Origin: a cyanobacterium endosymbiont of Rhopalodia gibba
GTDB lineage: Bacteria > Cyanobacteriota > Cyanobacteriia > Cyanobacteriales > Microcystaceae
Length of the DNA stretch: 64,000 bases
Reading direction: 5' to 3'
Assembly (NCBI GenBank): GCA_045159875.1
Contig: CP067995.1
Location: 96,001 to 160,000 of the forward strand
This document shows positions 34,401 to 37,400 of this stretch, in pieces (positions within the stretch are counted from its first letter, which is position 1; every line of letters begins with the position of its first letter). The position numbers are program-made.

Positions 34401-37400
34401 CAGTAACAAGACTTTTAAAAAATCTAACATTTTTTTGGAAAAGTCAGGACTTTTAGTTTGTTAAACGTCGTTTTATATAAGTTATCTACCAATTGCTTTA
34501 TAAAGTTTTGATCCATGTCGTAGGTTACCAAATGAGACTGGGTAATTCGATTGTAAGCCTTCTCAAGTTTATGTGATGTATCGTTAATTTCTTGTTACTC
34601 CATCTTTGAGGTTGGATTACACTGAATGTTCAGTACAAATAATTATAATTGACACTTTTTTAAAAGTACGTCAAGATATTTAATGTAAAAGTGACTTTTG
34701 TAAGGCTAAAGATAAATGACTGTGGAGCTACTGTAGCTGGCTAACACATAATAAATTGTGCGTCAATATGGTTACTGGGCAGTGTTTATGGGCATCACCT
34801 TAGAAAATATAGGAATTCCCATTCCTGGGGAAACCATTAATATTACCGGAGGAGTCCTAGCTGGAAGTGGAGATTTAAATTATTGGATAGTGATAGGAAT
34901 GGCCACTGCAGGAGTAGTTCTCGGCAGTAATTTTGGCTATTGGATTGGTCGGTTAGGAAGTTGCGCAGTTTTATTAGTATTTGGGCGTTTATTTAGAATT
35001 CCTCAAACAAAATTAGAGGAAGCTAAGGCATTATTTGGTAATAATGCGGTGAGTGCTATGTTTTTTGGACGCTTTGTAGCGTTGTTGCGGATTTTTGCCG
35101 GACCCATGGCGGGGATTATTAAAATGTCCTATAGTCAATTTTTGCTATGTCACTTTGGTGGGGCTGTGATTTGGGCATCTTTTATGGTGACTTCATCTTT
35201 TTTTGTGGGACGCATTATTCCCCTACACCAATTAGTTGAGTCCATGGCTCAATCGAGTATTGTTGCATTGGCTTTGTTGACAGCTTGGATTGTTATTCCT
35301 TGGTGGCTAGATCGTAGAAATCAGAAGTCTCCGACTTCAGGCTCGAAGACTATAACAGACTAGAACCTCCATAAATGATTGATTCAGGAATCTTCCATCT
35401 CTATCACTCCTGTGATGAAATATCTGGATAAATTACCCCAATCAACGTAAGTTTGACGAAATTTTAAATAAGAGAAAGGAGGCCAGTTTACTTTTCCTTC
35501 ATGAATCTAAGATAAGGTTTTTTATCTAAAATCAAGTATAAGCAAGTTGTTTATGAGCAAATTACAGTTTGGGTTCTAAATGCCGTCCCACCATAATCTT
35601 AGTCCCATCTAGCTGAGCCTTTAAAAACTTAGTGTGATCTACTGCTAGCCTGATAAACGACTCGTATCGGAGTAGAGTCAATCAATACTAATTCCTGTAA
35701 TTTTTTCCTTGCAAGTCTGTAAAAAACAGAAAGGTGACACCATCGTCTAGGATACAGCCACCACAAAACAATTGGAGTTTATTAGATTAGGAAATACTTT
35801 GTCACAATGGAGAAGAACCCGTAACGTAACTAAATCCTTTAAAAGTTTGGTATCCTGACCCAGGAAAAGTGATTATAATGCTCGTAACTTCATCTCTTTT
35901 CAAATGAGAACGGCATTCTTCTCCAATAAATAAAATACTGTTAATTGAAGAACAGCACTGTTATTCTGTCCAAATTTTTGATGAAAGTCATCTAAATCAC
36001 AAAATATTTTGATAAGTATCGAGACAAAATCTTATATTAATAGCACTAAACTTTAATAAATACTGTTTTTAGTATAAAGTTACCGTCCTGTCTGTCCATG
36101 AGTTTCTTTCGAATCCACTTTACGTTAGTCATTTTTTAGAAAAAGTTGGTAAGCTATTAGGTAATAGGATAAATCGTTCATCTGCCTACTTGGTAGACGG
36201 AAGTAAGGAGTTGTGAGAGCTTCTGAAGGAACGCGCCTCATTCGATAATTCAACGAATTTGAAGGAGGCGACATGAAATCTCATAATAATTGTCTTAGTT
36301 TTAAGTCCAAAGATAGGTTGCTGTCTGTTGCGGAACAGTTGCGTTTTCTGATCAGCCAGGATCGCCGAAAACAGCAAAATCGCCAACTTTCTATGCGATA
36401 CAGACTAGCGTCTGAAGTAGGGACGGATATTTAACAGTCAATTCATGACTAATGTGGGAATCAATAGTTGTTGATTCCCACCAATGACTCCCTACTGATT
36501 TACTTTAGATGTTCACGACAGAAAAAAATAAATTGTGACCAACAACAACCAACAAAACATTAAACAAATTCACCGCACGAATATGTTACGGATTCTCAAA
36601 TACCGCTTAAAAGTTACCAAACAACAAAGTAACATCCGGTTAATTGAACAACTCGAAGCTGAATAGGCGTTGTTACAGTGATTTTGCCTTGCAGTGACAG
36701 ACGTTGGTCCTGTCTCATGTAAATCAGAAAGTCTCACGCAAAGTTTTCATAGAGTATGGAGTTGCTATAAGAATTAGAATTCTAGGCTTTTGGTGGGCGA
36801 CGCCCAACTTAAGTTCAATGATTTTGAGGAAGTTGGCCAATACTTAAAAAGGAATTGGATCTTCTTCTCCATCAAAAGTGGTTAAGGTAGGAGTAGGGAC
36901 AGGCTGGACCGATTCGGGATAGGCGGAAGATTGGTAAGAATCTCTAGAAACAACATTATCCTCAGAAGTAAAAGGGATTGGGGAAGTGGAGTAAGTGTCT
37001 AAGGAATAAATATGGGAAGCGACTAACTCAACCCGTTTTTCTTTAAATCCCTCAGGACGGTCAACAGTATTCATCGAAAGACGACCTTCAATAATCAGGC
37101 AGTCACCTTCTTTGTAGGTATTTTGCATTTGGGTTGCTAAACTACCCCATCCAATCACTTTTATGCTGGAAGCCAAAGCTTCCGGGCGTCTCCCTGTAAA
37201 CTCCACTAACATTTGAGCAATCGGGGTTTTATCGTCTTGAGTATAACGTAATTCTGGGGGACGGATTACTTTAATCATTAAAACACAACTATTCATCGAA
37301 TCAACTCCTTAACTATCGTTAATCATCAGTGTGAATTTTTATTGAATTTATTTTCATCGGTTACATACTGATCATTTCTCCTTGTTCTTGCTCAATAAAA

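Follow-up and report, generated by a model that had tools for sequence, protein, structure and literature searches.

The closest described counterpart of the locus reported here is gifB of Synechocystis sp. PCC 6803, which is under the control of a glutamine riboswitch working as an ON-switch, for which a mechanism sequestering the Shine-Dalgarno (SD) sequence has been proposed (Klahn et al., 2018, PMC6212724). The gifB product IF17, an inactivating factor (IF) of glutamine synthetase (GS), comprises about 117-149 aa with an N-terminal DUF4278 moiety, which is described as stabilising IF17, the protein being degraded when the moiety is missing (Bolay et al., 2018 review, PMC6316151). The same review names three conserved arginines as essential for the action of the second factor, IF7, describes that complexes of IF and GS come apart at high pH, and reports DUF4278-containing "IF17-like" peptides such as PMM1846 from marine picocyanobacteria, located behind type-2 glutamine riboswitches (Bolay et al., 2018 review, PMC6316151).

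We analysed a window of 64,000 nucleotides (contig CP067995.1, positions 96,001 to 160,000) from the genome of the cyanobacterial endosymbiont, or spheroid body, of Rhopalodia gibba. This genome, G000, was compared with four other spheroid-body genomes (G002, G005, G006, G007) and three free-living relatives (G001, G003, G004) of the genus. Positions count along the window, those marked C1 along the contig. As the genome-wide survey's note had stated, a glutamine riboswitch lies directly before a small gene. The type-1 aptamer (RF01739) is found at 36173..36237 on the plus strand, where it matches positions 1-53 of the 53-position covariance model with 52.4 bits (gathering score 35). Its 3' end is separated by 35 nt from the ATG of an open reading frame of 53 codons (36273..36434, plus strand), which codes for a basic protein of 6.3 kDa with a pI of 10.5 and a net charge of about +6. 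Since the frame from stop to stop has only 61 codons, the gene cannot be much longer than called. The protein is a core-only homologue of the GS-inactivating factors and is termed mini-IF in the following. Like Synechocystis gifB, its gene has an RF01739 aptamer in the 5' UTR immediately before the coding region, and in this feature it corresponds to the gene described in Klahn et al. (2018). The two also appear to have in common the logic of anti-SD/SD sequestering and the IF core of their products. In contrast to IF17, the mini-IF has 53 aa and no DUF4278.

The leader carries the elements expected of such a switch. The SD sequence GAAGGAGG (36261..36268, plus strand) was read 5 nt upstream of the ATG, and both are identical in all seven genus genomes that have the gene. 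Between aptamer and gene a hairpin is predicted as expression platform (36234..36270, plus strand), in which GAGGCG in the SD region pairs with CGCCUC, a strand that reaches into the 3' end of the aptamer. The minimum-free-energy fold has -14.9 kcal/mol with z = -2.47. For all 17 riboswitch-linked leaders compared, which come from several families and include the leader of a DUF4278-bearing IF17-type gene, the prediction gives this outer helix as well. The sequences of the inner stem differ between families, and variation within the genus is confined to bases of the loop. The aptamer is thus predicted to be coupled to the ribosome binding site by the CGCCUC/GAGGCG hairpin in the manner of a riboswitch. 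It precedes the orthologous frame in 7/7 frame-bearing genomes, with 94-98% identity to the three other spheroid-body genomes that have it and 82-85% to the free-living relatives. Directly 5' of the aptamer the block AAAAAGTTGGTAAGCTATTAGGTAATAGGATAA (36140..36172, plus strand) can be aligned in 7/7 genomes; farther upstream endosymbiont and free-living DNA are unalignable. This block is probably the promoter region. A scan with the sigma-70 consensus gave no convincing site at the leader, and a scan for exact GTA-N8-TAC boxes, the promoter sites at which NtcA represses IF genes, found eight in the window and none near 36000-36272.

The survey's note had likened the protein to IF7, and this holds for the core of the factor. 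Profile NF052599 (GS_inact_IF7A) matches residues 18-52 on its positions 2-36 of 66 with 21.6 bits (E 1.9e-4). As the equivalog cut-off is 70 bits, and true IF7A genes of the free-living relatives reach 122-126 bits, the mini-IF is not filed as IF7A. In a Pfam search with E up to 10 the frame hit no family, including DUF4278, which scores 87 bits in an IF17-type relative. Homology of the core is nevertheless well founded: hhalign of the mini-IF family against IF7A gives a probability of 93.9% (E 1.5e-7) over 36 columns, and BLASTP finds 43% identity over 37 residues (E 1e-7) with the C-terminal half of the IF17-type protein. Moreover, R24, R37, and R44, which align with R8, R21, and R28 of IF7A, are invariant in 24 members of the mini-IF family and make up three of only six invariant residues. 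With a core homologous to the helical one of these factors and with the three arginines, the mini-IF can be placed in the IF7/IF17 superfamily. It resembles IF7A in its 36-residue core, the three conserved arginines, and its small size and basic character. It differs in lacking the C-terminal 28 residues, in an unrelated N-terminus of 16-17 residues, and in that it stands under a riboswitch, IF7A being the factor with the NsiR4 site and the true gifA lying separately in the free-living relatives. Hence, to go by these alignments, the mini-IF is neither an IF7A equivalog nor IF17, but a core-only, gifB-type paralogue linked to a riboswitch. It is also no gifA orthologue, as the true gifA locus lies elsewhere in the genome and is dead. 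With the PMM1846-type peptides described in the review the mini-IF has in common its small size and basic character, the control by a glutamine riboswitch, and the origin from a streamlined genome. However, those peptides keep the DUF4278 part and miss the arginine core, whereas the mini-IF shows the reverse, the core only, behind a type-1 aptamer. The subfamily comprises proteins of 43-56 aa, publicly named only "hypothetical", and we know of no member that has been tested biochemically. PDB sequence searches with the mini-IF frame and the IF7A profile gave no matching chain.

The presumed target is present. GS is encoded by a single intact gene (473 aa) that is 91-96% identical across the genus, and Fd-GOGAT and NtcA are intact in G000 as well, as the survey had reported for all three. 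Positions 419/456/459 of GS are E/N/R in G000, matching the residues that Saelices and co-workers reportedly identified in 2015 as interacting with IFs, E419 and N456 among them; this agreement is a lead rather than evidence. A complex prediction for two GS copies (30-row alignment) and the mini-IF (24-row alignment) scored 0.00 in both runs and speaks neither for nor against binding. It could be argued that the mini-IF is a selected member of the IF superfamily whose target is not GS, or not GS alone, but maybe another acidic partner in nitrogen metabolism, and that the riboswitch does no more than report glutamine. This would agree with the score below the IF7A cut-off, with the missing IF7 tail and DUF4278 domain, and with a subfamily of its own that consists of short "hypothetical" proteins. 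The second glutamine riboswitch of the genome (C1:1765765-1765842) points the same way, as it controls an unrelated membrane protein of 76 aa, which shows that genes other than those for GS inhibitors also stand behind glutamine riboswitches. However, what the mini-IF retains is exactly the region common to IF7 and IF17, and no arginine is invariant besides the three that align with conserved ones in IF7A. In addition, the IF17-type gene has the same leader, and GS is retained and highly conserved. We therefore regard a target other than GS as unlikely. The 76-aa protein itself matches only unnamed cyanobacterial clusters in the Atlas, apart from one automatically assigned name, probably an error.

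The survey's note had also brought in NsiR4. This sRNA is indeed kept (C1:1348807-1348872, 42.7 bits, cut-off 40), but a link to the mini-IF finds no support: for predicted pairing with the mini-IF leader 86/300 and 156/300 shuffles reach the observed value, as opposed to 9/300 for gifA as positive control. The two genes published as NsiR4 targets, gifA and pirA, are themselves either dead or in decay in G000.

Stop-free orthologues of the mini-IF occur in seven of the eight genus genomes including G000 (six of them as matches to the G000 protein). Identity to the G000 protein is 98% in G005, 87% in G006, and 90% over residues 1-48 in G007, and reaches 67%, 61%, and 61% in the free-living genomes G003, G004, and G001, respectively; the search gave no match in G002. 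These figures repeat those of the survey, which gives genome-wide identities of 79% for non-coding and 92% for coding DNA between G000 and G005; our own nucleotide values are local. In comparison of G000 with G005/G006/G007, nucleotide identity is 98/98/94% for the aptamer, 97/97/94% for the platform, and 96/88/85% for the frame, versus 82/81/78% for the upstream and 84/76/60% for the downstream flank. As the leader is better conserved than the frame, the leader might be a riboswitch-containing regulatory RNA in front of an untranslated frame. However, substitutions within the frame are strongly biased to synonymous sites. G000 and G005 differ by six synonymous changes and one non-synonymous change, and the synonymous share of 6/7, 11.5/19, and 12/23 exceeds the expected value of about 22% (binomial P between about 1e-3 and 6e-4, for pairs that are not independent). 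dN/dS is 0.04-0.22 in all six pairs among the four spheroid-body genomes with the gene. In addition, the strong SD sequence and the ATG are invariant, and the amino-acid core is kept even between families in which changes at the DNA level have reached saturation. Conservation at the RNA level only is thus highly improbable, and the mini-IF gene is, judged from its substitution pattern, a real protein-coding gene under purifying selection in the spheroid-body genomes. The survey had called it an uncalled gene, which is true for its own gene list but not for public annotations of sister endosymbionts, where it appears as "hypothetical protein", in one case with the start misplaced inside the riboswitch. 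In four RNA-seq runs of one sample, the locus is covered by contigs of 8.3 kb, the longest contigs in these runs reaching 72-156 kb; other runs hold small shares of the stretch. Contigs of 8.3 kb point to DNA or pervasive RNA in the library and thus do not inform about transcript, ends, or regulation.

Downstream, 20 nt past the stop codon of the mini-IF gene, a stem-loop without U tract is found (36454..36481, plus strand, -17.6 kcal/mol). At this position G005, G007, and G003 have a stem with compensatory changes (AAUC:GAUU, AGUC:GACU, GGUCAAC:GUUGACC), and G006 has a different hairpin. A consensus terminator scan found no terminator with U tract. The stem-loop is likely a terminator or a stabiliser of the 3' end, located between the mini-IF gene and a relic of pirA (PII-interacting regulator of arginine synthesis; 36535..36666, plus strand). 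The relic matches NF050139 with 40.5 bits, below the cut-off of 50, which the free-living G003 exceeds with 64.1 bits. In G000 pirA starts with GTG in place of ATG and is truncated at its C-terminus; the other endosymbionts show stops (G005), a frameshift (G006), an unrecognisable copy (G007), or loss of the 5' part (G002), and the PirA cut-off is reached nowhere in any of the five endosymbiont genomes. The module of riboswitch, anti-SD hairpin, and mini-IF also occurs in other cyanobacterial families, usually with pirA 3' of it. pirA represents the second gene that the module had ancestrally, and it is in decay in G000.

Decay has reached the other IF genes as well. In the endosymbionts canonical gifA/IF7A and a third IF-like gene, both unlinked to the module, are broken; in G000, gifA is a pseudogene with a stop at codon 4 and a deletion. 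The module itself is kept in four of the five spheroid-body genomes (G000, G005, G006, G007), but was removed in G002 by a clean 1.34-kb deletion. In G007 an 8-nt insertion turns the conserved C-terminal EVGTDI of the mini-IF into ERPK, and the protein of one public sister sequence stops after SEV. The deletion and the frameshifted C-terminus indicate that the module is not a universal requirement of the symbiosis. One could go further and regard it as a relic that was functional in the free-living ancestor and is now dispensable, most lineages not yet having been hit. This would fit with the loss in G002, with the altered and truncated C-termini, and with the fact that gifA, the third IF-like gene, and pirA have all died already. 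Against it stand dN/dS values well under 1 on the endosymbiont branches, a core without stops or frameshifts in four genomes, and the 94-98% conservation of aptamer and platform next to flanks of 60-84%. Moreover, pirA, just 100 nt away, has gained stops and frameshifts and lost its start in the same time. A relic is thus quite unlikely. What is new here is that, as far as the genomes compared allow to read it, of gifA, the third IF-like gene, pirA, and the riboswitch/mini-IF module only the module survives in the spheroid bodies.

In our view the locus is likely to function as a self-contained module of the gifB type for glutamine feedback. The type-1 aptamer of the mRNA leader would run with its 3' end into the anti-SD strand, so that in the absence of glutamine CGCCUC:GAGGCG pairing would mask the ribosome binding site. 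When the glutamine pool of the endosymbiont rises, ligand binding would rearrange the P1-proximal region and expose the ribosome binding site, and the basic protein of 53 residues would be produced. This protein, the arginine-bearing core of IF7/IF17, would most likely bind GS type I electrostatically and keep it inactive until glutamine drops. That the aptamer binds glutamine, that the switch is of the ON type, that the mini-IF is translated, and that it binds and inactivates GS is inferred by homology only. Several points speak against such a gifB-type brake, namely the score below the IF7A cut-off, the absence of both the 28 C-terminal residues known from IF7A and the DUF4278 moiety of IF17, the deletion in G002, the tails of G007 and the SEV sequence, and that the scan found no canonical NtcA box in the leader region.

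How a nitrogen-fixing endosymbiont hands fixed nitrogen to its host is an open question for diazoplasts. For E. clementina paradoxical responses to ammonium are described, and diffusion of ammonia to the host is proposed (PMC10103950; PMC12377750). None of the diazoplast papers searched by term, these two included, mentions a riboswitch; gifA, looked for in one of the papers, does not occur there. In the full-text literature, "Epithemia" together with "inactivating factor" gave nothing, and "glutamine riboswitch" together with "endosymbiont" gave nothing on diazoplasts, judged by titles and abstracts. Table S1 of Klahn et al. (2018, PMC6212724) lists for the free-living relative Cyanothece sp. 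PCC 8801 a riboswitch with "DUF2996" downstream, which suggests that the short frame was missed by the Pfam-based approach. The locus also shows that a core-only class of GS-inhibitor homologues is widespread and escapes gene callers as well as Pfam-based surveys.

With one RNA and one 6-kDa protein the locus is a small and concrete candidate for a part in nitrogen handover, and sister endosymbionts, in which the module is present, absent, or truncated, provide a natural experiment. It is plausible that such a GS brake would let NH4+ spill over to the host. It is possible, though rather doubtful, that riboswitch and mini-IF are the only surviving post-translational control of GS in rhopalodiacean spheroid bodies and act as a cell-autonomous overflow valve, which would need neither a host factor nor a 2-oxoglutarate/NtcA signal and would cap the endosymbiont's own assimilation at its glutamine pool, leaving excess nitrogenase-derived ammonia to the diatom. 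If this were true, lineages without the module such as G002 would use other means, e.g., a lower abundance of GS. In that case the selective retention of the module, with gifA, the third IF-like gene, and pirA all in decay, would mark the regulatory step by which a free-living diazotroph became a nitrogen donor.

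The only Rfam family above threshold in the 64-kb window is the type-1 glutamine riboswitch RF01739, which lies full-length at 36173-36237 (+) and scores 52.4 bits (gathering score 35), as the genome-wide survey's note had reported. The 53-codon frame that the note had described behind it (36273-36434, +) was likewise read; it starts with ATG 35 nt past the aptamer, behind GAAGGAGG, and its stop-to-stop frame comprises 61 codons only. A six-frame search of the eight genomes of the genus found the ORF in seven, with 98, 87 and 90% identity in three small spheroid-body genomes of 2.5-3.1 Mb. 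In three large genomes of free-living relatives (4.6-5.2 Mb) identity is 61-67%, and the endosymbiont G002 gave no match; these values agree with those given earlier. Judged by its substitutions the ORF is a genuine gene, because dN/dS is 0.04-0.22 in all six pairs of the four endosymbiont copies. The copies of the genome under study (G000) and of G005 differ by six synonymous and one non-synonymous changes, and synonymous excesses of this kind among the pairs have a binomial P near 1e-3 to 6e-4, with about 22% of sites synonymous and with pairs that share branches. Conservation across the locus tracks function: identity to G005, G006 and G007 is 98, 98 and 94% for the aptamer, 97, 97 and 94% for the predicted Shine-Dalgarno-sequestering hairpin (36234-36270) and 96, 88 and 85% for the ORF, against 82, 81 and 78% for the 160 nt upstream and 84, 76 and 60% for the 120 nt downstream. 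Compared with the free-living relatives, the hairpin is 89-97% identical and the upstream flank falls to 39-54%. The nearest public proteins are named "hypothetical protein" and belong to cyanobacterial endosymbionts of Rhopalodia species; sister annotations thus include the gene without recognising it, and "uncalled" holds for the survey's own gene list only. One sister annotation misplaces the start inside the riboswitch.

The weak match to the IF7A family of glutamine synthetase (GS) inactivating factors (NF052599, cut-off 70 bits) recurred with the same values, E 1.9e-4 and 21.6 bits for residues 18-52 on profile positions 2-36. An identity with IF7A was rejected, since each free-living genus member has a separate true gifA with 122-126 bits on NF052599, whereas the riboswitch-linked ORF of these genomes reaches 29-32 bits. 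Classical IF17 was rejected as well, as a Pfam search of the ORF found no family, including DUF4278, the N-terminal moiety of IF17 according to Bolay et al. (2018; PMC6316151). A profile of the ORF family matched the IF7A profile with 93.9% probability (E 1.5e-7, 36 columns), aligning ORF residues 18-53 with IF7A residues 2-37, and BLASTP matched the C-terminal half of an IF17-type protein from another cyanobacterial family (43% identity, 37 residues, E 1e-7); this protein, of 117 aa, sits behind a riboswitch of its own and matches DUF4278 with 87 bits. The ORF product (6.3 kDa, pI 10.5) therefore resembles neither complete protein, and its alignments point to a core-only "mini-IF", in which the core shared by IF7 and IF17 follows a variable N-terminus of 17 residues. 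The earlier reading as an IF7-like brake on GS was thus largely right in molecular terms, except that the factor appears to be gifB-type and core-only instead of IF7. Searched against 1.84 billion representatives, the family profile found 24 proteins at E <= 1e-3, most of 43-56 aa; five of ten clusters looked up bear a name, which is "hypothetical protein" in all five. Only M1, R24, L26, R37, M41 and R44 are invariant in the 24-member alignment. R24, R37 and R44 line up with three arginines that are conserved in IF7A. Bolay et al. (2018; PMC6316151) describe three conserved arginines as each needed for GS inactivation by IF7. PDB sequence searches with the ORF and with the IF7A profile found no solved IF structure. 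Four of the longer homologue calls open with EGTRL, which, read by eye, comes from translation of the aptamer's 3' end, and these homologues therefore likewise lie behind a riboswitch. The public proteins P0003, P0010, P0018, P0020 and P0023 have starts placed too far upstream, hence the EGTRL(I) within them, and the peptide can serve as a convenient marker of mis-called riboswitch-linked genes.

Continuous with the last aptamer bases is the arm CGCCUC (36234-36239, +), predicted to pair with GAGGCG (36265-36270, +) of the Shine-Dalgarno region; together with an inner helix AUUCG/CGAAU this gives a hairpin of -14.9 kcal/mol (z = -2.47). Both arms are invariant within the genus, changes being confined to loop bases. 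The outer helix is predicted in all 17 riboswitch-linked leaders, seven of the genus and ten of other families, one IF17-type gene included, and the inner-helix sequence varies by family (e.g., UCUAA/UUAGA). The same arrangement is found in the Synechocystis gifB leader, for which Klahn et al. (2018; PMC6212724) proposed that bound glutamine melts an inhibitory helix so that translation can proceed, and reported that IF17 accumulation requires the riboswitch. By analogy, the same ON logic can be assumed for the mini-IF leader: bound glutamine would open the CGCCUC/GAGGCG helix, free the Shine-Dalgarno sequence and lead to mini-IF translation. Exact GTA-N8-TAC matches scanned across the window gave no NtcA box at the leader, and a consensus scan gave neither promoter nor terminator at the locus. 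A stem-loop without U tract follows the stop codon (36454-36481, +; -17.6 kcal/mol), and its pairing is preserved by compensatory changes in G005, G007 and the free-living G003. Contigs of 8.3 kb from RNA libraries span the locus; they attest only DNA or pervasive RNA of this stretch and delimit no transcript.

The module is not restricted to this genus. The profile gave IF-family matches in 91 of the 401 cyanobacterial genomes that were sampled, and among the best 20 out-of-genus loci scanned RF01739 lies directly upstream in ten, including all seven above 40 bits; nine of these ten riboswitch-linked genes encode mini-IFs of 45-56 aa. In the free-living relatives the gene of PirA, the PII-interacting regulator of arginine synthesis, directly follows the mini-IF gene (G003: 64.1 bits on NF050139, cut-off 50). 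In the window only a relic is present at 36535-36666 (+), with 40.5 bits against the same cut-off of 50, GTG for ATG and a truncated end. The other copies have three stops (G005), a frameshift (G006) or a missing 5' part (G002), or are unrecognisable (G007), and no PirA above cut-off was found anywhere in the five endosymbiont genomes. The pirA half of the module is thus decaying in the endosymbionts, and, 100 nt from the mini-IF gene, it is a convenient neutral control. Of the canonical gifA, a remnant outside the window (C1:728542-728736) reads ATG TCT ACC TAA: codon 4 is a stop, and the remainder of the gene is deleted. Its NtcA box and its 13-nt target site for the sRNA NsiR4, both seen in G003, are mutated, and the other four endosymbiont genomes gave no match for gifA. 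The free-living relatives have yet another IF-like gene, the third, for an acidic protein of 71-73 aa with two IF-core-like repeats (16-25 bits on NF052599). It persists only as stop-bearing fragments in three of five endosymbiont genomes (G000, at C1:393119-393277, G002 and G006) and was not found in the remaining two. Since pirA, gifA and the third gene are broken, the module of riboswitch and mini-IF is the only one of four small nitrogen-excess regulators kept intact. NsiR4 itself, which had been counted in favor of a brake, does have a match in all five endosymbionts (30-46 bits, two below cut-off; G003 72 bits), with a conserved seed that can base-pair with the leader of gifA. It lends no support to that reading, because its published targets are dead or decaying in G000 and its predicted pairing with the mini-IF leader does not surpass that of shuffled sequences (86/300 and 156/300 as good), as the control pair G003 NsiR4-gifA does (9/300). 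About 170 nt located 20-190 nt downstream of NsiR4 are far better conserved than NsiR4 in endosymbiont and free-living genomes, and may represent a leader or a further non-coding RNA.

Retention of the mini-IF has limits, as it is full in three, tail-altered in one and missing in one of the five endosymbionts of the genus. In G002, window positions 34702-35234 and 36576-37400 match back to back (C1:1664921-1666269), a clean deletion of ~1.34 kb that removed riboswitch, mini-IF and pirA start and cut about the last 43 codons of an upstream 201-aa membrane-protein ORF (34758-35363, +). Owing to an 8-nt insertion, the C-terminus in G007 reads ERPK in place of the conserved EVGTDI, and one public sister sequence ends at SEV; another intact copy, P0004, with 81% identity, is on a contig of 3.1 Mb. 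Upstream of the riboswitch, ~35545-36111 has more than 12 matching places in G002 at 67-78% identity and is a dispersed repeat or mobile-element remnant without a long ORF. The second glutamine riboswitch noted in the genome was also found (C1:1765765-1765842, 50 bits). An ORF 37 nt downstream encodes a hydrophobic protein of 76 aa and no known family, probably a two-helix membrane protein, which G000, G005 and G006 share with 100% identity and which is present in all five endosymbionts, including the mini-IF-less G002. Being better conserved than the mini-IF, it may be the more indispensable glutamine-regulated gene.

The genes of GS, Fd-GOGAT and NtcA are all intact in G000, as previously noted. 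It is a reasonable hypothesis that, through the module, the endosymbiont restricts its own assimilation and so leaves surplus ammonia to the host. Other symbioses with cyanobacteria classically rely on low GS activity (PMC12903740), and for Epithemia the current model is diffusion of ammonia into the host (PMC10103950, PMC12377750). However, work on Epithemia also argues that the diazoplast is held nitrogen-deficient with high 2-oxoglutarate (PMC10103950), in which case little glutamine would be available and the switch would be off, and the loss in G002 shows that the module is dispensable for the symbiosis. Its retention is accounted for equally well by ordinary glutamine homeostasis. The kind of system is already known from Klahn et al. 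(2018; PMC6212724), and no description of a core-only IF variant was found in the literature searched. What is new is the selective survival of the module in diazoplasts next to three dead sister regulators.
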